From contig OZ242381.1 of NCBI GenBank assembly GCA_965209095.1, forward strand, positions 5,198,667 to 5,262,666: a DNA stretch of 64,000 bases. The letters run 5' to 3'. The notes under the pieces were generated by a model. That model searched no databases and was not told where the DNA came from. It saw nothing but the letters and a program-made list of their open reading frames with translations. How positions within the stretch are numbered: the first letter of the stretch is position 1; each line of letters opens with the position of its first letter. This document shows, in pieces, positions 2,823 through 23,032 of this stretch. This DNA comes from Candidatus Poribacteria bacterium. Lineage in GTDB: Bacteria; Poribacteria; WGA-4E; WGA-3G. The translations under genes were made by a program, and so were the position numbers.

Positions 2823-3782
2823 ATGAAATTAAAAATACTCGTCCCAATAATTGTAATCATTATTTTATTTGTTCCAATTGCATTTAGTATGTTCTATGTT
2901 GTAAACGAAGCAGAACAAGTCGTCATCACAGAATTTGGTCGCCCTGTAGGAGAACCAATCGTTACAGCAGGTTTAAAAATTAAAACGCCCTTTATTCAAC
3001 AGATCCACCGTTTTGAGAAACGCGTGCTTGAATGGGACGGTTCCCCTAACCAAATTCCAACAAAAGATAAGAAGTTTATTTGGCTTGATACGACAGCGCG
3101 ATGGCGGATAAAAGATGCACTTCAATTCTATCAAGCACTCGGCACAGAAGTCCTGGCACAATCACGTTTGGATGACATCATCGATTCTGCAGCAAGGGAT
3201 TTAGTAACAGCACAACTGTTGATTGAAGTTGTGAGAGATTCCAACCGTGTGCTTACTCTTGATATAGAGACACTTGAGGAGGACGAAGGACAATCAGGTG
3301 AACCGCTTGAAGAGATAACGATTGGTCGAGAACAAATTACACAGAAAATACGAGAAAAAGTGCAAGAAACTGTACCGCAATATGGCATTGAACTTATTGA
3401 TGTTCAGATCAAACGCATCAACTATGTGGACGAAGTCCGCGAGAAAGTCTTTACGCGTATGATCTCCGAGCGACAACGTATCTCAGAAAAATACAAATCT
3501 GAAGGCGAAGGGGAAGCCGCAAAGATTAATGGTGAGAAGCAGAAAGAACTGGAACGTATCCAATCCGAAGCATACAAGCAAACGGAACAGATCAAAGGTG
3601 ATGCTGACGCACAAGCTATCCAGATTTATGCCGAAGCACACGGCAAAGATCCTGAGTTTTTCGCTTTCCTCCAAACCTTAGAGACATATCGCAAATCCAC
3701 AAATCCAAGCACAAAACTCATCTTGACAACCGATAGCGAACTCTATAAATATCTGAAAAATAGTCAGCTGCTTAGGCGTTAA
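2823..3782 (+). CDS. hflC: FtsH modulator HflC
   Basis: RMISER...SEGEGEA and DPEFFAF motifs. Confidence 0.93.
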   Translation: MKLKILVPIIVIIILFVPIAFSMFYVVNEAEQVVITEFGRPVGEPIVTAGLKIKTPFIQQIHRFEKRVLEWDGSPNQIPTKDKKFIWLDTTARWRIKDALQFYQALGTEVLAQSRLDDIIDSAARDLVTAQLLIEVVRDSNRVLTLDIETLEEDEGQSGEPLEEITIGREQITQKIREKVQETVPQYGIELIDVQIKRINYVDEVREKVFTRMISERQRISEKYKSEGEGEAAKINGEKQKELERIQSEAYKQTEQIKGDADAQAIQIYAEAHGKDPEFFAFLQTLETYRKSTNPSTKLILTTDSELYKYLKNSQLLRR

Positions 3783-4007
3783 TGTTTGCAGGATAATCCT
3801 TTTTGCGGTATAGTAATTAGTGGAGGTACTTGTGAGCGGACTTATTTTAGCTATAGAAGCATGGCAAGAAAGAAAAGAGAGAATCCGTAAAGAGAAATTA
3901 GCTGCGGGCTTCGTTTCCGCTTGCACGGCGCGTCGCATTGCCTTTTATTGATGCAACTGAATTTATGGGAACATATATCAATCCCACGATAAGAAAGGAA
4001 TAGATGA

Positions 4008-4439
4008 ATGACACGCATTAATTTAAATATACTTGTTATTGTCTGTATTTGTATGCTTGTTGGTGCAGTTAATGCACAAGATGCAACAATAAAAGGTGAA
4101 GTGATTGATACATCTCCAGAACAGAGACCGATAGAAGGCGTTACCGTAAAAATAGTGAATGCTGCAACTGAAGAAGTATTTACCCTCACAACTGATAAAG
4201 ATGGTTCCTATGAGAAGAAGGGATTACCCGCAGGTCGCTATATAATCAGTGTTTCTAAGAGTGGTTACGGAGACAGAATAGGCAAGTCAAAGGTGGTTGC
4301 TGCTGGTGGTGAAATATTTGACCGAATCAAGATAAGAAAACAGGAGAACATATTCACCTTTCTGTTTGATATTTACGGGTTTTTCATCGTTGGGGTTATT
4401 ATAGCATTTATTCTAATATTTACAGGAGCAGAGCTGTAA
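4008..4439 (+). CDS. Carboxypeptidase-regulatory-like domain protein with signal peptide and C-terminal TM anchor
   Basis: IKGEVID...PIEGVTVKI...TDKDGSY...LPAGRY; hydrophobic termini. Confidence 0.8.
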   Translation: MTRINLNILVIVCICMLVGAVNAQDATIKGEVIDTSPEQRPIEGVTVKIVNAATEEVFTLTTDKDGSYEKKGLPAGRYIISVSKSGYGDRIGKSKVVAAGGEIFDRIKIRKQENIFTFLFDIYGFFIVGVIIAFILIFTGAEL

Positions 4440-4469
4440 TTTCCTATCTTTTTTCACAGTCTACGGATT

Positions 4470-4493
4470 GTAGGAGGGGTTTCTAACCCCGAT
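4470..4493 (+). repeat. GTAG-type REP (inverted copy at 26154-26177; partial at ~4600-4614)
   Basis: GTAGGAGGGGTTTCTAACCCCGAT with GGGGTT/AACCCC stem. Confidence 0.75.
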
Positions 4494-4722
4494 TATCATA
4501 ATTGACATCAGAATTAGTTATTTTATGTTCTTTTTATCAATCCAAATCAACGCTGAATGTGCTTGGCAGAATACGCGTATGGTATTCTACATGATTCAGC
4601 GGGGTTAGAAACCCAATAAATACCATAGGCGTATTTGGCGTTGATTCACTCCTACAAATGATAGGTAGCAACTTAGGTTTAGATAGTTTCGTCTTATGAC
4701 AATCTGAAAAAGGAGTAAAAAG

Positions 4723-5202
4723 ATGACCCGCTTATGTTCATATATGATGTTTGTTGTGTGTATAAGTTTCTCAATCTGTCTCGGCAGTGATATCGGAGGA
4801 ATAGAAATCATTACAGACGGTGTAGGGGCAACAATCACAGGTGAAGTCCTTGAGGCAACTCCTGAACAAAGACCAATTGAAGGTGTTACCGTGAAAATAG
4901 TCAATACTGCTGATGGACAAGAATATATCGTCACAACAGATGAAAATGGCTATTACGAAAAAACTGGTTTACCTGCAGGTCGATATACAATAAGTGTATC
5001 TAAGAAAGGTTACGGAGACAGAATTGCTAAATCCAAAGTGGTTGCAGCCGGTGGTGAAATATTTGACATAATCAAGATGGCAAAGATACAATACATTCAC
5101 ACTTATCTACTGAAGCATCTTTTTACATGGCAGCTTCTTGTTGGTTTTGCCCTTGGTTTTCTTTTAGGTTTTTTCATAGATTCCAAAAGATCGCGTGTTT
5201 GA
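4723..5202 (+). CDS. Paralog of 4008-4439 (carboxypeptidase-regulatory-like domain plus TM)
   Basis: Shared core PEQRPIEGVTVKIVN...SKVVAAGGEIFD. Confidence 0.8.
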   Translation: MTRLCSYMMFVVCISFSICLGSDIGGIEIITDGVGATITGEVLEATPEQRPIEGVTVKIVNTADGQEYIVTTDENGYYEKTGLPAGRYTISVSKKGYGDRIAKSKVVAAGGEIFDIIKMAKIQYIHTYLLKHLFTWQLLVGFALGFLLGFFIDSKRSRV

Positions 5203-6330: not shown

Positions 6331-7353
6331 CTATAGTAGTGCCTGAATCTGCTGCCATGTCTCTGTATCTATCGGAATACCATCTTGTTCGCGTTTGCGT
6401 TGTTCATTCCAACCGCGTTCACCCGGCATCATAATCTCATCAACTCCAATAGCACGTTTTGCAGATTTGACATAATTGATAAAACGCTCTATCTCCGCAC
6501 TGAAGCCTGGAAACTCTTGAAAACTCACAACATTTATCACAAGCACAAATAACCCGTTGCCGACACGTGCATCTGGACTACGGCTGCACCCCGCACCTGT
6601 CAAAGCACCTGCAAGTATATCAACAATAATACTCAATCCAAAACCCTTGTGTGAAGCAATCCCTCCGAGTGGTAATATGGAAGCGGGAGGCATACCATAG
6701 AAATCATCAGCATCAGTTGTTGGTTCACCTTCTGAGTTGATTAACCAACCTTCTAAAAGTGCTTCATTGCGATGCTGTTTAACACGGATCTTGCCAGAAG
6801 CGACAACACTTGTGGACATGTCCAACACAATCGGATTCTGTCCTTGAATTGGCACTGCACATGCTATCGGGTTTGTAGAGAGTCTCCCTTCAACACCACC
6901 GTGCGGTGCGACACATGTGCCACCGCCGTGGTCGTTCACCATCAGAAGGGCAATCATCTCAGCACCTGCAGCAAGGCATGCATAACCACCTAACCTGCCT
7001 ACCTCATTGCACCGAGACACAGCAACCGAACTTACATCCGTTTGTTTTGCTTTCTGAATTGCCATTTCAACTGCACGCGTTGCAATGACAGGACCGAAAC
7101 CCCAATTGCCATCTAACACTGCTATGGACGCTGATTCATGAACGGTTTCAGTGGGTGCATTGGGTTGGATTAGTCCTGCTTCTAATTCACGCACATATTT
7201 TGGGAGATGAATCACACCGTGTGAATCGTGTCCAACACGATTAGCATCTACCATAGAACGTGTTACTATTTCTGCTTCGTCTGGAGGGACATTGTATTTT
7301 TGGAATACGTTCAGGCATATAGATATAAGTTCATCGGTTGTGACATTAGACAT
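6331..7353 (-). CDS. Ldh_2 family oxidoreductase
   Basis: GHDSHGV, TNPIA, LDMSTS and HKGFGL motifs. Confidence 0.92.
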   Translation of the reverse strand: MSNVTTDELISICLNVFQKYNVPPDEAEIVTRSMVDANRVGHDSHGVIHLPKYVRELEAGLIQPNAPTETVHESASIAVLDGNWGFGPVIATRAVEMAIQKAKQTDVSSVAVSRCNEVGRLGGYACLAAGAEMIALLMVNDHGGGTCVAPHGGVEGRLSTNPIACAVPIQGQNPIVLDMSTSVVASGKIRVKQHRNEALLEGWLINSEGEPTTDADDFYGMPPASILPLGGIASHKGFGLSIIVDILAGALTGAGCSRSPDARVGNGLFVLVINVVSFQEFPGFSAEIERFINYVKSAKRAIGVDEIMMPGERGWNEQRKREQDGIPIDTETWQQIQALL

Positions 7354-7360
7354 TGGTGAA

Positions 7361-8188
7361 TTATACGTCTTCTGTATGTTTAAGGATTTCTGCTATCCGT
7401 TTTGCAAAGCGGAAGGCACTGTTGTCCTCTGGTTCGTAACTGATTACCTTGCGTGCATTGGTAATACTCCAGAACTTATGTGAGTTGTCACTGATACCGT
7501 AAAATATCTGAAATGGGATACCGTTTTCGTCTTCTATGTTCTCTGTTTCAATGCTCTTGACAAAGAGTTGGACCTGATCACGGACACTCAAATATGCACC
7601 AAGTGCGCGGTGCATCTTATGATAATTGTCCGCTGTGATGTCATTCAAATCGGTTTCCCGTGGTGCACCGATACGGATTTGCACATTCTGCAGCTTCTTA
7701 TTCTTTCTGAAACCTGTCGCAAAGACAAAACCGAGATGTTCATACGCTTCTTTTGCCCATCCGTAGAAGTTATCTGACAACGGACGCATCTCAGGTGTTA
7801 CGAAGTCCCATTTTCCTGACCAGATAAGTTTTTCATAGTAGTCTGCCGCGTGGTTAGAACTACAGACAACGACGCGCCGCACATCCGTTTCCCAACTGGT
7901 ATGGTAGATGTTATATGCCATCTGTATGTTGTTGAGTTCATTCTCAAATCCGCCACCTTGAAATGCACAGTGCACAACAGCATCAACCCCTTCAAAATAG
8001 TGTTTGTACAATTCACGGTCAGGGTTGCTAACATCAACGATGTGAATATCTTTCATTTCTTCCCCTTGCCGATTTGTGTTTCGGACATCAAGTAGGACAA
8101 GATCGTAACGTTCACGAAATGCTGGCAGCATGCGTCCTGCGATATATCCTGCTGCCCCTGTGATGAGGACTTTTCTACGGTTTGGCAT
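7361..8188 (-). CDS. NAD-dependent epimerase/dehydrogenase (uronate dehydrogenase-like)
   Basis: ITGAAGYIA, SSNHA and YGWAK motifs. Confidence 0.85.
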   Translation of the reverse strand: MPNRRKVLITGAAGYIAGRMLPAFRERYDLVLLDVRNTNRQGEEMKDIHIVDVSNPDRELYKHYFEGVDAVVHCAFQGGGFENELNNIQMAYNIYHTSWETDVRRVVVCSSNHAADYYEKLIWSGKWDFVTPEMRPLSDNFYGWAKEAYEHLGFVFATGFRKNKKLQNVQIRIGAPRETDLNDITADNYHKMHRALGAYLSVRDQVQLFVKSIETENIEDENGIPFQIFYGISDNSHKFWSITNARKVISYEPEDNSAFRFAKRIAEILKHTEDV

Positions 8189-8235
8189 AATTCTTCCTTC
8201 ATTTTCAAATATTATTGCGAATAGAATGTGCGGAT

Positions 8236-9915
8236 CTACGGAATTTTCAACTTATCTTTACAGTGCCGGGCAAGGGTTTTCATCTCATCTATGACCTGAG
8301 ACTCTGTCTGCATGAGTTGACAATAGAAGGGTGGAACAGGTTCTCGTCTAAACAACTTATCAAAGAAACTGCGTTGTGCCTCTGCTGGCATCTCAAATCG
8401 AGATTTTTCTGTTCGTGATGGGTCTACTCCCAAATACTCAATGGAAAGATAATGTGCGCCATCATCTTTCTTCATCTCATCATTATAAATACTACCGGTA
8501 ACTTTGCGTCCATAACTCACAGTATAGACTCTACCCGTTGTTTGACTCAGGACGGTATAACCCCCTTCGTCAATAGATTCGTTCCAGCATTTCTCAAACC
8601 CATTCTTTGGCAGACGTTCGCGTAGTTCCTTTGCAGACCGCACAACAAATCGGTTTTGTTGCAGTCTTTTGGTAATCTGAAATTCATCGTCTTGCTCTAT
8701 TAGAGGAGGCGGACCGGATAACAGATCAACATTATCAAGAGTCCAGACTACACCTGCTTGCATCCCTTTTGCTAAGTTCAGGTGTTTTTCAACAAACTCT
8801 CCGTTGAGTGGGTGAAGTTGGAAGTTTCCGTTGCTATTGAAGTTAGCACGTAATTTTCTACGATGATCTATCACTGAGAACCGCTTATCAGGAAGCGGTA
8901 TCTCTAACTGTAGTGTATAACCTATATCCAAATCTGTTGTGAGATTGAGTTGTGATTTTCGGAGTTGTGCGAGTCTTGTCAATGCCGTTTGACTTTTGGA
9001 TAAAACGCGTCCAATTAGATATTGACTACGAAGGTTAGGAATTTCAGTCGCAAGACGTTCAAGTGTTGCTGCATCCAGTTTCTCCAACATCACTTTGTGT
9101 TCCCAACGCGTGCCGCGTTCGTGTGCCAAGATTTGGAACTGCTGTTTATTACCACTGGTACGAATATACCCAAGGGCAGTCCACGGGTCAAAGGTCGCGC
9201 GATAATATCCACTTGTTTCTACATCACCACCTGCTAAGACGCAATCCCGTCGTTCGTATCGGGAATAGAGACCGAATTGGAATTCATAGGATTCATAGTT
9301 CTCCAATGCTTTACGGAGATCGTGTGCAAACTCACTTCCACGAGAAAACCTGCTAAATATTTGTTCTGTCTGATGTGGTTGATTGAGTGCATCAAGGAAA
9401 GATCCGATTGGGATACCTGCCTCTTCAACGCCTTCGTCCTCACTTTTTCCGAACACTTTTGTTTTGGTTTTGAAGGGCGGATTACGAAGTGTCACATCAC
9501 GTTGCGAAACAAGTTGCACTGCGGGATCGTCAGACATACCAGCGAGCGTCGGTGCATCTCCGAGGATTTCAGCTAACTTTACATCATCAATCTTCTCCAT
9601 CAACACTGTGCCGCGTTTAAGTTCAGCGAAATGGATAATATCGTTGAGACTATATTGCAGTGGGGCACTGGATGATAAGTTGTCGTAATTAGAACGGTGG
9701 AAACGGATGCGTGGCTTTATCCGAAAGACAGGTGTGAGGCCGTAATCTTTCAGCAACGCATACAAAGTCACCGTATATGACTCCTCATGCACTTTCTGTG
9801 CAAGAATACCGCCATCGGATGTTATATTGTTGACGATTAATCGATCTTGTACAGGGCTGCTATCATTACTAAAAATCATCATCCGATGTTCTTCTCTATT
9901 GTCATCAACTAACAT
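8236..9915 (-). CDS. Putative VTC/CYTH (triphosphate tunnel metalloenzyme) protein with a second degenerate CYTH-like domain, 559 aa
   Basis: VTC-like motif order REEHR / YTVTLY / RIKPRIRF / AELKR / YERR / RATFD / WEHK / SKS; AGGGAGG RBS before ATG 9915. Confidence 0.6.
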   Translation of the reverse strand: MLVDDNREEHRMMIFSNDSSPVQDRLIVNNITSDGGILAQKVHEESYTVTLYALLKDYGLTPVFRIKPRIRFHRSNYDNLSSSAPLQYSLNDIIHFAELKRGTVLMEKIDDVKLAEILGDAPTLAGMSDDPAVQLVSQRDVTLRNPPFKTKTKVFGKSEDEGVEEAGIPIGSFLDALNQPHQTEQIFSRFSRGSEFAHDLRKALENYESYEFQFGLYSRYERRDCVLAGGDVETSGYYRATFDPWTALGYIRTSGNKQQFQILAHERGTRWEHKVMLEKLDAATLERLATEIPNLRSQYLIGRVLSKSQTALTRLAQLRKSQLNLTTDLDIGYTLQLEIPLPDKRFSVIDHRRKLRANFNSNGNFQLHPLNGEFVEKHLNLAKGMQAGVVWTLDNVDLLSGPPPLIEQDDEFQITKRLQQNRFVVRSAKELRERLPKNGFEKCWNESIDEGGYTVLSQTTGRVYTVSYGRKVTGSIYNDEMKKDDGAHYLSIEYLGVDPSRTEKSRFEMPAEAQRSFFDKLFRREPVPPFYCQLMQTESQVIDEMKTLARHCKDKLKIP

Positions 9916-16646: not shown

Positions 16647-17537
16647 ATGGCAAAACCGTATAAAACACTTACAGAATCCGATGTAGACCACTTCATTGAG
16701 AAGGGGCATGTTGTTCTGAAAGACTGCTTTTCACGCGAATTAGCAGCAGAATGGCGTGCGTTTGCTTTCGAACGTCTCGGTTATGACCCAGATGACACTT
16801 CAACTTGGGAACAACCTCGTATACATCTACCCGCCATGAACAGACTCCCGATCCGTGAAATTGCCCCGAGGGCATGGGACGCTATCTGTGATTTGCTCGG
16901 TGGTGAAGATAGAATTGCCAATACGCAACCTTCTTGGGGTGATGGTTTTATCATCAACTTCACATTAGGAGCAGATACTGCATGGCAACCACCTGAGTCA
17001 CACTACTCGGGTTGGCACAAAGATGGTGATTTCTTTCGGCACTTTTTAGATAGTCCTGAGCAAGGATTATTGACAATCGTTGTATGGTCAGATATTCTAC
17101 CGAAAAGTGGTGGCACGTTTGTAGCATGTGATTCAGTGCAACATGTCGCAGAGCATTCGTACGCGCACCCAGAAGGTTTGTTACCGGGGCAAGGTTTCGG
17201 TCAGTTGTATCAGAAATGTAAGAATTTTGTGGAAATTACGGGGAATGCGGGTGATGTTGTTCTTTTACATCCATTCATTTTGCATTCTGCATCACAGAAC
17301 CCATCGGGACGCGCCAGATTTATTACAAATCCGCCAGTTGCGCTCAAAGAACCGATGAATTTCAATCGTAGTAATCCTAATGATTTCTCTCCTGTTGAGT
17401 TAGCTGTCTTACGCGGGTTAGGGAAAGTTCGCTTAGACTTCAAACCAGCAGCACCGAGGGAAAGATTAGTACCTGAACGTGTCAAACGTCAACAAAAGAT
17501 GATGGAAGAGCAGAAAAAACGACTTGCGATGGGATAA
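16647..17537 (+). CDS. Phytanoyl-CoA dioxygenase (PhyH) family protein
   Basis: WHKDG (HxD) and AGDVVLLHPFILHSAS motifs. Confidence 0.85.
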   Translation: MAKPYKTLTESDVDHFIEKGHVVLKDCFSRELAAEWRAFAFERLGYDPDDTSTWEQPRIHLPAMNRLPIREIAPRAWDAICDLLGGEDRIANTQPSWGDGFIINFTLGADTAWQPPESHYSGWHKDGDFFRHFLDSPEQGLLTIVVWSDILPKSGGTFVACDSVQHVAEHSYAHPEGLLPGQGFGQLYQKCKNFVEITGNAGDVVLLHPFILHSASQNPSGRARFITNPPVALKEPMNFNRSNPNDFSPVELAVLRGLGKVRLDFKPAAPRERLVPERVKRQQKMMEEQKKRLAMG

Positions 17538-17538
17538 C

Positions 17539-18615
17539 TTATTCATCTTCTTCCGCTTCTAACTGTGCTTTCTGCCAACCATAATTTACATTGCCATCAT
17601 AAAACTTATCGGGATGTTCAACTGCCCATATCTGCTTATGTATAATCCAATTTTTCGGATCTAATGCCAGTGCCTTTCGCCATTCAGCCATCGCTTCCGT
17701 CTTTTTGCCTATCTCTAACAAGGTCCGACCGAGTTGAAACCGCGCATTTGCCTCAATGACATTTGGACTTTGCGATTTACTTGGCAGTTTAACACTGCTG
17801 AGTAATGTTGTGTTATAGGTAGGATCAGATACCCATTTCTCAAGCATTTCGGTTGTTTCTTTTTTAGCAACATTGATACTGAAAGGTGATTTGACCAACC
17901 GTCCTGCCTCGTCAATCATAACACCGTAGGGAATTGCCTTTAGGTTGAACAGATTTCCTAAAATGTTCCGTGAATCGACAAGCGTGACAAATTCCGCTTT
18001 GGCTTTGTCGTGCCATGGACGCACTACAGACGCACCTTGTGCATCTATAGCAATAGAAACAAGGTTTAGTCTATCACGATGTTTCGTATAAAATCTCTGC
18101 CATCCTGGCAGTTGTCCTCGACACCCTCACCATGAACCCCATATATAGAGAAACGTCTTCTTTCCACGAAAATCTTGCAAACGTTTTGGTGTATCGTCAA
18201 GATCGGATAATGTGAATTTAGGAGCAAGTTGTTCTGGTCTAACAATTTCTAATTCGGTATCGGAGGCACTGTATATTTCAAAACCGAACGGTTCAGCGAT
18301 GTCTTTAGGTTTAGCGTAAGTAACGTTATCAACCTTGAAAGCACTCTCACCCAATTGGAGTGGCACGCACAATTCCGATTCCCCACTACTACAGATGACG
18401 ACCATATCTTCCCCATCAGGTGTCTCAACCTTTAACCCTAACTGCTTGCAGAGCGTTTCTATCGGGATTAACCACGTACCATTTTTGAATATAGGAGATG
18501 TAGGAAATGTGACCAGTTTGCTATCAATTGAAACTTTGAGATTGCTAATAGGTGATGCGGACAAACCTGTTGCAATGGATAATATAACACAAGTAGTAAG
18601 TATGAACTTTGTCAT
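17539..18615 (-). CDS. Putative selenoprotein, 358 aa: signal peptide, copper-amine-oxidase-N-like domain, TlpA/Prx-like domain (WGSW-U-GC) and TPR
   Basis: ORFs 18127-18696 and 17539-18024 are in frame, separated only by TGA 18127-18129 at the redox-Cys position; downstream hairpin present. Confidence 0.85.
18097..18111 (-). promoter_or_regulatory. Putative bacterial SECIS hairpin
   Basis: CTGCCA-GGA-TGGCAG starting 15 nt after the UGA, with G in the apical loop. Confidence 0.7.
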
Positions 18616-18622
18616 GGTGTGT

Positions 18623-18661
18623 TTCTCTCCCGATGTTGTGCATCGTAAGTTAAGAATTTGA
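18623..18661. repeat. 39-bp direct repeat, copy 1
   Basis: TTCTCTCCCGATGTTGTGCATCGTAAGTTAAGAATTTGA, identical at 19727-19765. Confidence 0.95.
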
Positions 18662-18718
18662 CGTGCAATCTTTGTGCTTCGTTTTGATCGGTTCAATTTA
18701 TGCTAAACTGAACATTGA

Positions 18719-19599
18719 TTATTCGGATTCTTCGTTCAGGACTTGTATAAATTCATCAACGTTTTCTGCTTTAACCGCGGCACGTAATAACAACTCAAGT
18801 CGTTGTAACTCATCAATTGACTCAACCGATGTCTTAAAGGTTTGTGCTATGTCATTTCCAAATCGAAGTTCAAGGACTTCAAGGATTGACTTGCGAGTAC
18901 CTTGTTTGAATCCTTGTTCACGGGCAATTGGTGCCGCATATTCTGCGATTGAAGGTTGTTGCATGGTTTCCTCCAAAATAATATCAAATATTGTTTGTGA
19001 ATCAAAAGTTAAATTCCCTAAAATAGCAAGACTGCCGAGATATTCAATCTTGTTGGGAACATCAATACTGTCAGCGACTTGAACACACTTACGAAGCCAT
19101 TGTTCATCGCTTGTATCTGCATGATGTCTCATAAGCGGTGTAAAAGGTATCAAACCCACGATTCTTGATTCAAGTATTTCTTCTCCATCAAGATCAATTA
19201 ATCTGAAACTTGGTATTCAATTGAAATATTATGATGTTCAAGATTTTGCTCAAATCTACCTGGATCGTTCCTACCAGCATCAGGACGCAAGTATATCACA
19301 TTAGAATAAACGGGTAGACCATAGACTTCAATTGCTCTGATAATATAACCTGCCATCCTAAGTGGCATTTCTGGATCGTAACTATCATTGGTTTGAAATT
19401 CAAAATGGACGAGAACTTCTCTACCCTTGTGCAGCACCTTAATAAGTGAATCTGCCTGATGCATCTCTACCGTAGGTTGTTCAGGTGTAACAACCTCCAA
19501 TACGGTTATATCCGTGTCAGCAAATCTAAAACAAAGATGGACGAAATCTTGTGGATTAGTTTCAAGTTGTTTCTTAGAGGCAATATCAAAACTTGCCAT
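18719..19599 (-). pseudogene. Rpn/YhgA-like PD-(D/E)XK nuclease, frameshifted near 19205
   Basis: ADSLIKV...VHFEFQT...MPLRMAGY; one extra T restores EYQVFRLIDLDGEEILESRIVGLIPFTPLM. Confidence 0.8.
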
Positions 19600-19715
19600 T
19601 ACTCTCCTTCTTAATCTGTTTATGGTAAAACATTATGAATAATTATTTTTTGAGTTTATTCGTTGTAATCGGACAAATCATTGTGTATTTAATTGTCCGA
19701 ATGTGCATGGGACGA

Positions 19716-20105
19716 TCAATATGCACTTCTCTCCCGATGTTGTGCATCGTAAGTTAAGAATTTGATTATCTGTTCTGCAGTTTTTGGGGTGAGCCCTGAA
19801 CCCGGTTTTTGCATCATCTTCAGGACATATTTGCGCCATTCTTCAGCAGTAAAATTCGAATTAATTGGGCGTGCGACGGTATGGCATCTACTACATCTCC
19901 GAGTGAATACCGCGTAAAGCGTTTGCATCTCCTCTGGGTATTCTGAGACATCAATAAAGTTTGGTCCTTTGTCTGCAGGATATGTCTTAAGGACAGGACG
20001 TGGTGCACGTATGGCATAATACATACCTAAACCTATGTAAACCAAACCATAACCTATTAGAACTAAAATGATTATTACGACAATCCAAATAATAACTTGT
20101 TGCAC
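19716..20105 (-). CDS. Membrane-anchored monoheme c-type cytochrome
   Basis: N-terminal TM, CSRCH (CxxCH) and distal KMMQKPG Met ligand candidates. Confidence 0.8.
   Translation of the reverse strand: MQQVIIWIVVIIILVLIGYGLVYIGLGMYYAIRAPRPVLKTYPADKGPNFIDVSEYPEEMQTLYAVFTRRCSRCHTVARPINSNFTAEEWRKYVLKMMQKPGSGLTPKTAEQIIKFLTYDAQHRERSAY
19727..19765. repeat. 39-bp direct repeat, copy 2 (3' end of the cytochrome gene)
   Basis: Identical to 18623-18661. Confidence 0.95.
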
Positions 20106-20131
20106 CTCTATGTTTACCTCACGGTTATTAT

Positions 20132-20509
20132 CTATTCAATTGATGGTAACACCTCAATGCTCACATTACCATTTTCTATAACATCTAAAATTACACGACT
20201 TCCAAATAGAAGAAACATGCCAGCTATAGATCCGCCATCTGTACATAACACAGAAACACTTCTTTCTTCTTCATGCCATAACACTTTTGCGATATATTTC
20301 GCTAAAGATACCACAGTACCGTCACCGAGGCGCACCTCTTGATCATCAATCTTTGGTAGTTTGAGGTAGTCAATTAAATTACTTGGTAGTGCCAAATACC
20401 CGGAGAAACCTGTGTCAACTATACACTCAATCTTTTCCCATTGATTTGATCCACCGATTTCCAATTCAATAATAGTTTCTAAATCTGATGTAACTTTTCC
20501 AATTATCAT
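20132..20509 (-). CDS. Clan AA aspartic protease (AF_0612-like)
   Basis: VDTGFSGYLALP and 'IAGMFLL' motifs. Confidence 0.85.
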   Translation of the reverse strand: MIIGKVTSDLETIIELEIGGSNQWEKIECIVDTGFSGYLALPSNLIDYLKLPKIDDQEVRLGDGTVVSLAKYIAKVLWHEEERSVSVLCTDGGSIAGMFLLFGSRVILDVIENGNVSIEVLPSIE

Positions 20510-20775
20510 TGTGTCGGAATTGAAATCTTATACCCCATGCGATGTGCTGCCTCAAACCCAATCCGTAAACTGTAAATGATGGCATCAGGACGCTTAGCAA
20601 GCAGACGCATTGTTGGAGACAAATCATCAGTATCAATTTCATAGTCCCCAGTCTCAATGTCAACAGATAAAAACTTTCCTCTGTGTTCTGATTCTACCTT
20701 TTCTTGAATCTGCTGCTGATAAATCTCTTTGCCTCGGGCAGCAACAACATCGGAAGTGTACTTGCTACGTGGCAT
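20506..20775 (-). CDS. Small protein coupled to the aspartic protease (DUF5678-like)
   Basis: GKEIY...HRGKFLSVDIETGDYEID; ATGA overlap with the protease. Confidence 0.75.
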   Translation of the reverse strand: MPRSKYTSDVVAARGKEIYQQQIQEKVESEHRGKFLSVDIETGDYEIDTDDLSPTMRLLAKRPDAIIYSLRIGFEAAHRMGYKISIPTQ

Positions 20776-20859
20776 AACTATTCTCCCCATCGTGATTTTG
20801 TCTTGAAGTCTTAAAGTCCATATAGTGCCAACCGAATCTTTTCAGTCTTTTAATCCATA

Positions 20860-21169
20860 CTATAGTGGGACAGTTTCTATCCGTTTTACGTTGCGTTTTC
20901 AACAGAAAATCTATTTTTGGCGAGTTTCGAATATGAGTGGAAACCCGATAAAATGCGACACTCCAGCGGAGTACTATGTGTCGACCCCACATACCGCTCC
21001 GCTGGAGCGGAAATGTCAGTTGATAATGTGGCTATAAACATATTGCTCCGCTGGAGCAAAGAGGTCTCCATTTGTCCGTTGTTGGGTGTTGTTTGGTAAC
21101 ATAAGCGGTGAACTAACTTTTTATATCATTATATCAACTCACGTTTGAAAAAAATTGCCCAAACTATAG
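20860..21169. mobile_element. 310-bp MITE-like element with CTATAG ends and 9-bp TSD TAATCCATA
   Basis: TSD at 20851-20859 and 21170-21178; internal GCTCCGCTGGAGC palindromes. Confidence 0.7.
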
Positions 21170-21193
21170 TAATCCATACTACACAGTAGAATA

Positions 21194-23032
21194 TCAGATT
21201 ACATCTTTAACCTTCTGTGCGATAGCATTTGCACTAATGCCGTGAAGTTCCAATAACTCCTCAGGTTTGCCAGAGCGTGGAATACCTGTAACAGCAAGTT
21301 TATGCACGCGGACATCTGCAGTTGCGGCAGCATCTAACACTGCATCTCCCAATCCACCTTCAGGATAGTGATCCTCAACGGTTATTAGTATATTGTTCGT
21401 TTCAGACGCAGCAGCTAATAGTGTTTCTGTATCAATAGGTTTGACAGAATACAGATCAATGATGCGGACATTGATACCGTCTTCAGCAAGTATATCGTTA
21501 GCCTTTATAGCTTCGTGAAGTGTGACACCTGCGGTAACGATAGTGACTTTATCCTCTGCACTTTGCTGAACAACCTTACATCCACCGATAGGAAAAGTAT
21601 CCGTAGCATCGTATAGAATCGTAGTTTTTGGACGCGAAGTGCGGATATAGACTATGCCTTGATGTGCAGCAGCTTCAGCGACAAGGCGTTCCGCAGCGAC
21701 AGCATCACTTGGGTATAACACGACAGACTCAGGTATTGCTCGGAACATCGCAATGTCTTCTAAACCCATCTGAGAAGGACCATCTTCACCGATTGAAACA
21801 CCACAGTGTGAGCCCGCATATTTGATATTCGCCTGCGAAATAGCAGACATTCGGATCTGATCATACGCGCGTGACAGAAATGCGGCGAATGTAGAAACGA
21901 ATGGAATCTTCCCTCGTTTCGCCAAACCGATACCTGCTCCCACTAAGTTCTGCTCTGCGATGAACATCTCAAAAAACCGATCCGGAAAACGTTCCATGAA
22001 CTGTTCTGCATAAGTAGAGTTTTTGGTGTCTCCATCCAGTGCCACAACATTTGGATTGGCAGCACCGAGTTTTGCCAACCCCGTTCCGTAACCGCCGCGG
22101 GTTGCTACCTCTTCGTCAGGTGCATATTCTGGTGGTTCACATGCTATAATGGGAGAAGACTGATTTTCTATCGGATTTGGAGATACTATCTGAATTGGAA
22201 CATCGGTGTGTAATGGACCGAGTTCTGCTAATGCCTTATCAAGGTCTTCACCTTTAGGAACCGCCTTTCCGTGCCAGTTGTCCTCATTTTCAAGGAAGGA
22301 AACCCCTTTTCCTTTATATGTTTTTGCGACAATCATGGTAGGTTTGTCAGTTGAAGTTTTTGCTTTCTCCAGAGCAGGTAGAATCTCATCATAATCGTGT
22401 CCATCAATACCGATGGTTTGCCATCCAAATGCCTCAAAACGACTACAATACGGATCAATATCATGTGCATACATAGTACGTTGACTCTGTCCAAGAGCGT
22501 TTACATCTACAATTCCAATGAGATTATTTAACTTGTAATGTGATGCTAATGCGGCAGCTTCCCACACACCACCTTCAGCGGTTTCACCGTCACCGAGTAG
22601 CACATAGACACGGTAATCCAATTTGTCAAGGTATTTACCGTTGAGAGCCATTCCGAGACCGAGCGATAAACCTTGTCCGAGTGATCCAGTTGCCACCTCT
22701 GTCCAATCAAATCGTGGCGTGGGATGTCCTTCAAGAATGCTGTCAATCTGCCGAAGTGTTAGTAGATCATCTGTTGGAATGATACCTGCTTCAGCATAAG
22801 CTGCATAAAGCAGTGGTGCGGCGTGTCCTTTTGATAAAACAAACCGGTCATTGTTAGGATTTTGTGCGTCTGCACAGTCGTAACGCATCGTATGAAAAAA
22901 GAGAGTAGAAACAATATCTGCTGCTGATAGACAGGTCGTTGGATGTCCTGAACCTGCCTCTGATGTTGATAAAATAGAGTGTATGCGTAAATTAGTTGCT
23001 TTTCTTTTTAGAAGATTCTTCAATGTGTCCAC
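21194..23032 (-). CDS. tkt: Transketolase
   Basis: SGHP, SKGHAAP, TGSLGQG, GDGE and GEDGPSQM motifs. Confidence 0.95.
   Translation of the reverse strand: MDTLKNLLKRKATNLRIHSILSTSEAGSGHPTTCLSAADIVSTLFFHTMRYDCADAQNPNNDRFVLSKGHAAPLLYAAYAEAGIIPTDDLLTLRQIDSILEGHPTPRFDWTEVATGSLGQGLSLGLGMALNGKYLDKLDYRVYVLLGDGETAEGGVWEAAALASHYKLNNLIGIVDVNALGQSQRTMYAHDIDPYCSRFEAFGWQTIGIDGHDYDEILPALEKAKTSTDKPTMIVAKTYKGKGVSFLENEDNWHGKAVPKGEDLDKALAELGPLHTDVPIQIVSPNPIENQSSPIIACEPPEYAPDEEVATRGGYGTGLAKLGAANPNVVALDGDTKNSTYAEQFMERFPDRFFEMFIAEQNLVGAGIGLAKRGKIPFVSTFAAFLSRAYDQIRMSAISQANIKYAGSHCGVSIGEDGPSQMGLEDIAMFRAIPESVVLYPSDAVAAERLVAEAAAHQGIVYIRTSRPKTTILYDATDTFPIGGCKVVQQSAEDKVTIVTAGVTLHEAIKANDILAEDGINVRIIDLYSVKPIDTETLLAAASETNNILITVEDHYPEGGLGDAVLDAAATADVRVHKLAVTGIPRSGKPEELLELHGISANAIAQKVKDVI

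Follow-up and report, generated by a model that had tools for sequence, protein, structure and literature searches.

The window analysed here, a stretch of 64,000 nucleotides (nt) from the genome of a sponge-associated Candidatus Poribacteria bacterium, contains a 39-nt direct repeat that frames an Rpn-like, putative nuclease gene (rpn) at the 3' end of a small cytochrome gene. On balance, this repeat is probably the scar of a local change of gene order at a recombination hot spot, and not the trace of the arrival of a roaming element. The explanation is preferred because the gene is an ortholog of a gene that resides at the same locus in relatives, because its old 3' spacer has been kept, because relatives have the empty site, because the tail of the left repeat copy is native, and because duplications of this gene end recur. 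The genome, G000, is a single contig of 5,444,765 nt with 41% G+C, in which the window occupies G000:C1:5198667-5262666. The names given to homologs likewise point to Candidatus Poribacteria. Relatives are coded Gnnn, and the genus comparison set comprises 40 genomes besides G000.

The duplicated end of the cytochrome gene

The two copies of the repeat, at 18623-18661 and 19727-19765, are identical at 39/39 positions and their starts are 1104 nt apart, which confirms the perfect direct repeats and the 1104-bp periodicity reported in the initial annotation of the window. Within the 5,444,765-nt genome the 39-mer is found exactly twice, with 0 occurrences on the opposite strand. A genome-wide scan for isolated exact repeat pairs of at least 24 nt that lie 300-4000 nt apart yielded only 10 pairs, including this one; therefore, the repeat is not due to chance. 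The segment between the copies is 1065 bp long, is single-copy in the genome and contains one gene, which is encoded on the minus strand. No recombinase-sized open reading frame (ORF) was found inside the segment, nor were inverted repeats found that frame it, in line with the earlier statement that an integrase and terminal inverted repeats are lacking. The features of the locus are:

17539..18615, minus strand: gene for a ResA/TlpA-like thiol-disulfide oxidoreductase, with an in-frame TGA at 18127-18129 (motif WGSWUGC)
18612..18622, minus strand: native tail of the left copy, ACACACCATGA; the old cytochrome stop overlaps the ATG of the ResA/TlpA-like gene (18615-18613)
18623..18661, minus strand: left (relic) 39-nt copy, non-coding, with the Shine-Dalgarno-like GGGAGAGAA of the downstream ResA/TlpA-like gene
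18662..18718, minus strand: spacer e, 57 nt 3' of the rpn stop, ending in an illegitimate joint to the left copy
18719..19599, minus strand: Rpn-like PD-(D/E)XK gene, ortholog of a gene of G020 that encodes 293 amino acids (aa), split by a frameshift
19600..19715, minus strand: spacer d, between the cytochrome stop and the rpn start, with a unique hairpin at 19669-19700
19716..19726, minus strand: tail of the right copy, GTGCATATTGA, the present cytochrome end (SAY-stop); the ATG of the downstream gene is lost
19727..19765, minus strand: right (functional) 39-nt copy, cytochrome codons about 109-121, encoding IKFLTYDAQHRER
19716..20105, minus strand: small, membrane-anchored c-type cytochrome-like gene, 129 aa, CxxCH

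The right copy completes the 129-aa ORF, in which it stands for the residues IKFLTYDAQHRER close to the C-terminus, so that two further claims hold, namely, that the repeat encodes part of the cytochrome C-terminus and that the host gene is preserved by the duplication of its end. In relatives, the stop of the cytochrome gene overlaps the start of the ResA-like gene (ATGA), and just upstream there is a conserved CATCGGGAGAGAA, which looks like the ribosome-binding site of the ResA-like gene. The former overlap with the cytochrome gene implies translational coupling. The left copy has kept GGGAGAGAA and the ATGA overlap of the downstream gene, which supports the view that the duplication leaves both neighbours usable. 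The tail of the left copy is identical at 10/11 positions to those of G020 and G050, the tail type of the closest relatives, and the tail of the right copy is identical at 8/11 positions to those of G016, G012 and G003. Beyond the 39-nt copies, on the stop-codon side, a partial similarity between them extends for 11 nt further (5/11 identical). Taken together, the left copy and its tail most plausibly represent the final 50 nt of a cytochrome copy that once followed rpn.

In 15 of the 19 genus relatives that were compared first, the overlap between the two flanking sequences is exactly 39 nt; related genomes thus have the empty site with a single copy of the repeat that the initial annotation had envisaged. 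Protein mapping located the cytochrome and the ResA/TlpA-like genes next to one another in 17 of the 19, and also in G051, G053, G050, G052 and in both copies of a duplication in G049. The total is 22 of 24 relatives, and the exceptions are G006 and G010.

The arrangement was also compared with four metagenome runs, all of them public contigs assembled with k=31; sponge and marine metagenomes hold the stretch. The public contigs break at the repeat because its 39 nt exceed their k-mer, and none of the listed contigs spans the right junction with 31 nt to either side, as would be the case if the arrangement were an assembly artefact. However, the left junction is crossed without any difference by contigs of two other studies (X14 record 18, 18030-19105, and X3 record 25, 18580-18832). 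The depth in the source-like run X10 is flat across the left flank (73), the insert (69) and the right flank (64), and it is double for the 39-mer unitig (137). In addition, the layout of cytochrome, rpn and relic recurs in a related strain in run X1, the genome is one 5.44-Mb contig, and the probability of an exact 39-nt match by chance is negligible. An artefact or a chance repeat is therefore close to refuted, and we regard it as hardly credible.

The Rpn-like gene and its origin

Judged from its sequence, the gene in the window is the ortholog of the gene that G020, G024 and G018 have at the same locus, on the upstream side of the cytochrome gene. These three genomes gave the best DNA matches to the insert among the 40 genus genomes (86%, 87% and 82%, respectively; all others at most 78%), and in all three the match is the immediate upstream neighbour of this cytochrome gene. 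The gene order in these genomes is transketolase - rpn - cytochrome - ResA-like, and that in the window strain is transketolase - slot A - cytochrome - rpn - 50-nt cytochrome-end relic - ResA-like. In a maximum likelihood tree of 28 DNA rows, the gene of the window nests within G020/G024/G018, with a clade support of 99/97. G053, the closest relative by transketolase identity (91.7%), contains an rpn relic (aa 256-293) in the upstream slot.

The gene has retained its old 3' spacer. Spacer e aligns in register with the rpn-cytochrome spacer of G024 (27/44 identical, with an exact 12-mer), and this score is reached by 1/2000 shuffles. The homology ends at the joint to the left copy, and the microhomology at the joint, read by eye, is at most 1 nt. 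At the other side of the gene, about 25 nt of spacer d next to the ATG resemble the rpn leaders of relatives. The remaining part of about 100 nt (19625-19726, including the tail) has no homolog in the own genome or in the 40 genomes of the genus, and therefore it is not a known transketolase-rpn spacer. The best match to spacer d in the genus is AT-rich and lies at an unrelated place (E 1.3e-5 over 44 nt), no repeat of spacer d was found within the own genome, in which the hairpin at 19669-19700 is unique, and an exact 30-mer of it had 0 matches in the metagenome contigs. A protein scan of these contigs detected only paralogs in other contexts, the best being a 70% paralog (L084). Among the orthologs, conservation is confined to the ORF, about 25 nt upstream and about 55 nt downstream, and the ends of the segment are not conserved.

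The initial annotation had named an Rpn/YhgA-like nuclease gene as the sole gene of the segment. It is indeed the sole gene; the Rpn label, however, found no backing in Pfam or NCBIfam matches, and the gene is frameshifted. It is split by the loss of 1 nt in a run at 19206-19208, which has three A and in relatives four, and the halves are the ORFs 19198-19599 and 18719 to about 19215; the protein of G020 reads ...EYQVFRLIDLD... at the frameshift. The related strain in run X1 has one extra A after 19205, and therefore its gene is intact, while run X14 also has the frameshift allele (19125-19312, 0 differences). As an intact allele of the window strain P0001 was considered, and it was rejected because it is only 85% identical. 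The frameshift removes the nuclease part, and the C-terminal helical part, with internal Met codons, stays open (18719-19159). If the family works like RpnL/RpnS, the strain could make the antitoxin-like part alone.

A Pfam scan of both halves returned 0 families at E<=0.01, and a scan of two intact paralogs no relevant family at E<=10. In NCBIfam, TIGR01784 matches only at E 0.016 and 2.5, over the repeat region. Among 33 aligned distant homologs, two reach PF04754 (best E 1.4e-7), two DUF4351 and one PDDEXK_2, and a 71%-identical homolog is labelled 'predicted transposase YdaD' in one JGI record. The AlphaFold2 model of the G020 ortholog has a mean pLDDT of 90.9. Its residues 1-137 match PD-(D/E)XK nucleases, namely, NucS (2vld_B, Z 9.1, root-mean-square deviation 2.8, 102 residues aligned), VC1899 (Z 8.0), and Can2 and restriction enzymes (Z 6-7). 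Foldseek assigned a probability of 0.99 but an E of 0.06, and nothing in the PDB was found with it at E<=0.001. In the alignment of 33 sequences D50 and E67 are invariant and Q69 is nearly invariant. The protein is thus a putative nuclease with a predicted N-terminal PD-(D/E)XK fold and conserved acidic residues. Helices are predicted at residues 217-290 of the G020 model. Paralogs contain QGIE/QGLE-type four-residue runs 12-15 residues past an internal Met; the copy in the window has a single EQGF/KQGT unit and no repeat run. A profile search of solved structures yielded no match to Rpn/RpnS, the sole match being YflH (E 0.38). The gene is called Rpn-like here, as it seems to belong to a divergent branch for which remote evidence points to, and does not prove, membership in the Rpn family.

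The own genome harbors 12 loci of the Rpn-like family. The flanking-repeat score is 39 for the locus under study and 8-13 for the other 11 paralogs, and the random 95th percentile is 19. Repeats around other rpn genes, which the initial annotation had proposed to look for, are thus not present above background at any of them (0/11), which fulfils one half of the refuting outcome that this annotation had named.

Rearrangements of the locus and their probable explanation

The transketolase-cytochrome-ResA interval holds different cargos in different genomes, i.e., nothing, o94, o94 plus o125, rpn, a RelE/HicB-like pair or TnpB, and only TnpB brings a recombinase of its own. The part between the transketolase and cytochrome genes, slot A, is empty or contains o94, o94 plus o125, or rpn. 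The o94 and o125 genes are present or absent singly or as a unit among relatives, and they are missing in the X1 strain. The end of the cytochrome gene is duplicated in three more genomes (85-nt query, 39 others probed, of which 30 matched at all). In G006 and G010, a duplication of 75 nt (89% in G006) surrounds a RelE-like/HicB-like, toxin-antitoxin-like pair; NCBIfam has no label for the pair, and the labels are our reading of the ORFs. Behind the relic, G010 has only a degenerate ResA-like gene and G006 has none, which suggests that this gene can be lost once it is separated from the cytochrome gene. G049 has two copies of the entire cytochrome-ResA unit (a duplication of 1494 nt, 97.7%), with an IS200/IS605-type TnpB, o94 and o125 between them. 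The order cytochrome - rpn - full cytochrome was not found among the 40 genomes. The respective positions are:

20132..20790 of the window, minus strand: slot A genes, a 125-aa clan AA aspartic protease-like ORF (o125) and a 94-aa ORF (o94), overlapping
L022, 442-516 and 1486-1560: repeat copies of G006
L072 (G010:C704): locus of G010
L067 (G049:C5:1752500-1763500), 3290-4783 and 7012-8505: copies of the G049 duplication, with rpn upstream of the first copy

The o125 protein matches TIGR03698 with an E of 3.4e-13, which is below the cut-off, and o94 was assigned to no family. At 20959-21066, the window contains palindromic units with a CTCCAGCGGAG core that resemble REP (repetitive extragenic palindromic) elements. 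Contigs with such units have 4-13x the depth of their neighbours and many loose ends in all four runs, and therefore they represent a high-copy dispersed repeat.

The cytochrome-like gene is conserved in 41/41 genomes searched (40 relatives and G000), and its ORF has two weak matches to heme-binding families of Pfam (E 2.7e-4 and 3.5e-3), both below the cut-off. The ResA-like protein matches NF041054 of NCBIfam ('WAxxUGC', E 4.5e-44, below the equivalog cut-off). The same break between its N- and C-terminal parts occurs in every relative mapped, and therefore the gene is probably a selenoprotein gene, the TGA of which would be read as selenocysteine, and not a pseudogene. An Rfam search over 17000-21500 returned nothing but a chance microRNA match (E 0.41), and a scan for promoters and terminators was no better than shuffles (10 sites vs 6.8 +/- 2.7).

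Repeat-flanked cassettes exist also elsewhere in the genome:

G000:C1:364335-364381 and 365062-365108 (L081): HicA/HicB-like cassette; the first copy ends at the stop of a 101-aa ORF
G000:C1:4405879-4405911 and 4409037-4409069 (L082): 3.1-kb islet; about five ORFs, among them a small toxin-antitoxin-like pair
G000 622071/623726: remaining repeat-flanked cassette

The HicA/HicB-like pair, so named from a reading of its ORFs, is flanked by an exact repeat of 47 nt (about 65 nt with 1-3 mismatches), and the interval is variable across the genus. The repeat of the islet (33 nt exact, about 43 nt in all) duplicates the 5' region of a peroxiredoxin-like gene, and the site is empty, with one copy, in G043, G012, G054 and G050 (flank overlap 41-43 nt). 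A helix-turn-helix gene cassette has a 34-nt flanking repeat within a longer imperfect match. These cases hint at a general insertion process. A homolog of Ku, sought as support for a capture by end-joining, was not found in the own genome, which is 95% complete (0 matches). CRISPR-like arrays with repeats of about 30 nt and unique spacers of about 36-40 nt are present at about 1,520,800-1,531,700 of G000:C1, and some spacers are duplicated between array segments.

According to the preferred explanation, the Rpn-like gene would be an old resident between the transketolase and the cytochrome genes that changed sides of the cytochrome gene. A duplication spanning the cytochrome gene would have placed one copy on each side of rpn, and a later deletion in the downstream copy would have run from the rpn-cytochrome spacer up to about codon 108; a duplication of such a kind, of the entire cytochrome-ResA unit, is present in G049. 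What is left of the downstream copy, its final 50 nt, would have been kept because they carry the ribosome-binding site and the ATGA overlap that the selenoprotein gene needs. Alternatively, the rpn segment might have been re-inserted in one step 370 nt further down, with a 39-nt duplication. Both routes lead to the same end state and cannot be told apart. We infer the order and the number of the events, as well as any part that the Rpn-like nuclease might have played in making breaks. A local change of gene order is consistent with what the available portion of the 2023 study reports about rpn genes, i.e., variable ends, tandem duplications and no autonomous mobility (PMC10400941). Signs of an element are lacking: 0/11 other paralogs are flanked by repeats, the insert is single-copy, and only the ORF is conserved.

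Several observations weigh against this explanation. The route via duplication and deletion takes two or three events, and an intermediate with two full cytochrome copies around rpn is missing, G049 being an analogue with a different order. About 100 nt of spacer d (19625-19726, with the tail) match nothing in the genus. The copies are identical at 39/39 positions, yet the adjoining 11 nt only at 5/11; for a duplication that decays evenly this is odd, except where the boundary is a real breakpoint or the tail is free of constraint. In run X1, the related strain differs from the window at about 10/1154 positions of the insert, at 76/1655 of the left flank and at 18/251 of the cytochrome body, i.e., its insert is about 1% diverged and its flanks 5-7%, while a single old rearrangement followed by vertical descent predicts similar divergence. 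The segment therefore appears to have passed between strains later than the DNA around it. Moreover, the genome contains the other small cassettes with flanking repeats of 33-47 nt, at least one of them with empty sites.

These last points are also the basis for a different explanation, which we regard as rather unlikely, namely, that the insert is a mobilisable, non-autonomous cassette. A circle of repeat, tail, spacer d, rpn and spacer e would have integrated at the 3' end of the cytochrome gene within the shared 39 or more nt, either driven by homology, promoted by Rpn or catalysed by a trans-acting recombinase; the copies would be attL/attR-like, and the cassette would move between strains. 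The site is empty in 22 of the 24 relatives examined, the tail of the right copy resembles a diverged cytochrome end carried by the insert, with 8/11 positions identical to other alleles, and G006 and G010 have another cargo at this gene end, together with its 75-nt repeat. In addition, E. coli RpnA raises RecA-independent recombination, as stated in the available portion of the report (PMC5350276). The contrast in divergence in X1 and the other cassettes, including the 3.1-kb insert with its empty sites, keep the homology-driven variant alive, at a probability that is low and at best that of the cassette as a whole. However, the gene is the ortholog of a locus resident with its old 3' spacer, a second copy is missing in the genome, the ends are not conserved among orthologs, 0/11 other paralogs are repeat-flanked, the segment has no recombinase, and the gene is frameshifted in the window strain. 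Across the cases the repeats range from 33 to 1494 nt with imperfect extensions, unlike a defined att site. The footprint of a mobile cassette with attL/attR-like ends, as originally proposed, therefore survives in part: the empty site and the gene-preserving duplication stand, and the roaming single-gene cassette does not. A roaming Rpn cassette with defined ends is not supported, given the locus-resident ortholog, the old 3' spacer, the lack of conserved ends and the single copy.

It is still less probable, and in our view a long way from likely, that two diverged haplotypes, transketolase - o94 - o125 - cytochrome and transketolase - rpn - cytochrome - ResA, came together through additive recombination with imported DNA, as in G049, with subsequent trimming, so that the functional gene and the relic would stem from different alleles. 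Both haplotypes occur in close relatives (o94 plus o125 in G050, rpn in G020 and G053), G049 has both in tandem, and the tail of the right copy is similar to the type found in another clade. Yet the functional cytochrome body has the same closest relatives as the flanks (amino acid identity 87.5% to G053, 86.4% to G020 and 84.5% to G050) and shows no mark of a foreign origin, o94 and o125 are missing from the X1 strain although it has the rpn arrangement, and a tail of 11 nt is too short for an allele assignment. A broader proposal, which also seems unlikely, is that small defence-type cargos of these sponge symbionts (Rpn-like genes, toxin-antitoxin pairs, the 3-kb islet) are moved without a recombinase of their own, by a route that duplicates 30-75 nt at the target, in the typical case a gene end that overlaps the neighbouring gene or lies directly against it. 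Short homology would let the inserts leave as loops and integrate again, the breaks might be supplied by the Rpn-like nuclease, and the cytochrome end would be a preferred landing site with at least three uses by three cargos.

Known systems and biological meaning

The distribution of Rpn genes is patchy, and, to our knowledge, neither element ends nor target duplications have been found for them. Integrative elements that target the 3' ends of genes, such as tRNA and tmRNA islands and their integrase-less derivatives that are mobilised in trans, carry a replacement end in attP. The locus resembles them in the direct repeat of the 3' end of a gene, in the restoration of the gene by the adjoining copy and in the one-copy empty site. 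It differs from them in that no integrase is found in or beside the segment, in that the target is the end of a protein gene that overlaps the start of the next gene, and in that the ends are not conserved and the cargo gene has long resided at this locus. From insertion sequences and transposons it differs by the absence of framing inverted repeats, by the single copy and by a duplication length that is not fixed (39, 75 or 1494 nt). A named comparison for the exchange of cargo by flanking homology are the 'minimal mobile elements' reportedly present in Neisseria. Similar to such an exchange, the transketolase-cytochrome-ResA interval holds different small cargos in different genomes. In contrast to it, as it leaves no duplication, the cargo here is framed by a duplicated gene end of 39, 75 or 1494 nt, and therefore an extra step of duplication or additive integration is needed.

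The Rpn proteins of E. coli (YhgA-like, COG5464, PF04754) are now seen as products of toxin-antitoxin and antiphage genes with an intragenic antitoxin, RpnS, according to the available portions of two reports (PMC10400941, PMC5350276). In the same portion of the 2023 study, rpn genes are described as having variable ends and neither terminal inverted repeats nor target duplications and as not autonomously mobile; they are said to move by recombination or hitch-hiking and to multiply by tandem duplication, and rpn arrays to have formed by tandem duplication of genomic regions (PMC10400941). RpnC contains KGIE repeats, and the RpnL/RpnS architecture is characterized there by four-residue runs shortly after an internal Met (PMC10400941). 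The gene family described here is similar in its length of about 300 aa, in its predicted N-terminal PD-(D/E)XK fold and in a predicted helical C-terminal domain after an internal Met. As far as the available portion of that study allows the comparison, the QGIE/QGLE runs of the paralogs resemble the KGIE repeats of RpnC, the many paralogs (12 loci) also have their counterpart, and so does a segment with variable ends and without terminal inverted repeats. In contrast to the E. coli proteins, neither this protein nor the two intact paralogs have a significant match in Pfam or NCBIfam, only 2 of the 33 distant homologs reach PF04754, and the copy in the window has a single EQGF/KQGT unit.

The locus represents a dated, strain-resolved example of an rpn recombination event in which both junctions are preserved. 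It exemplifies how a duplicated gene end lets DNA enter between translationally coupled genes and destroys neither of them. The contrast in divergence and the other repeat-flanked cassettes may reflect a real insertion route via short homology. If not, the repeat would be an ordinary scar of genome rearrangement; if so, it would exemplify how defence genes can spread among uncultured symbionts in a simple manner, with no need of a recombinase.

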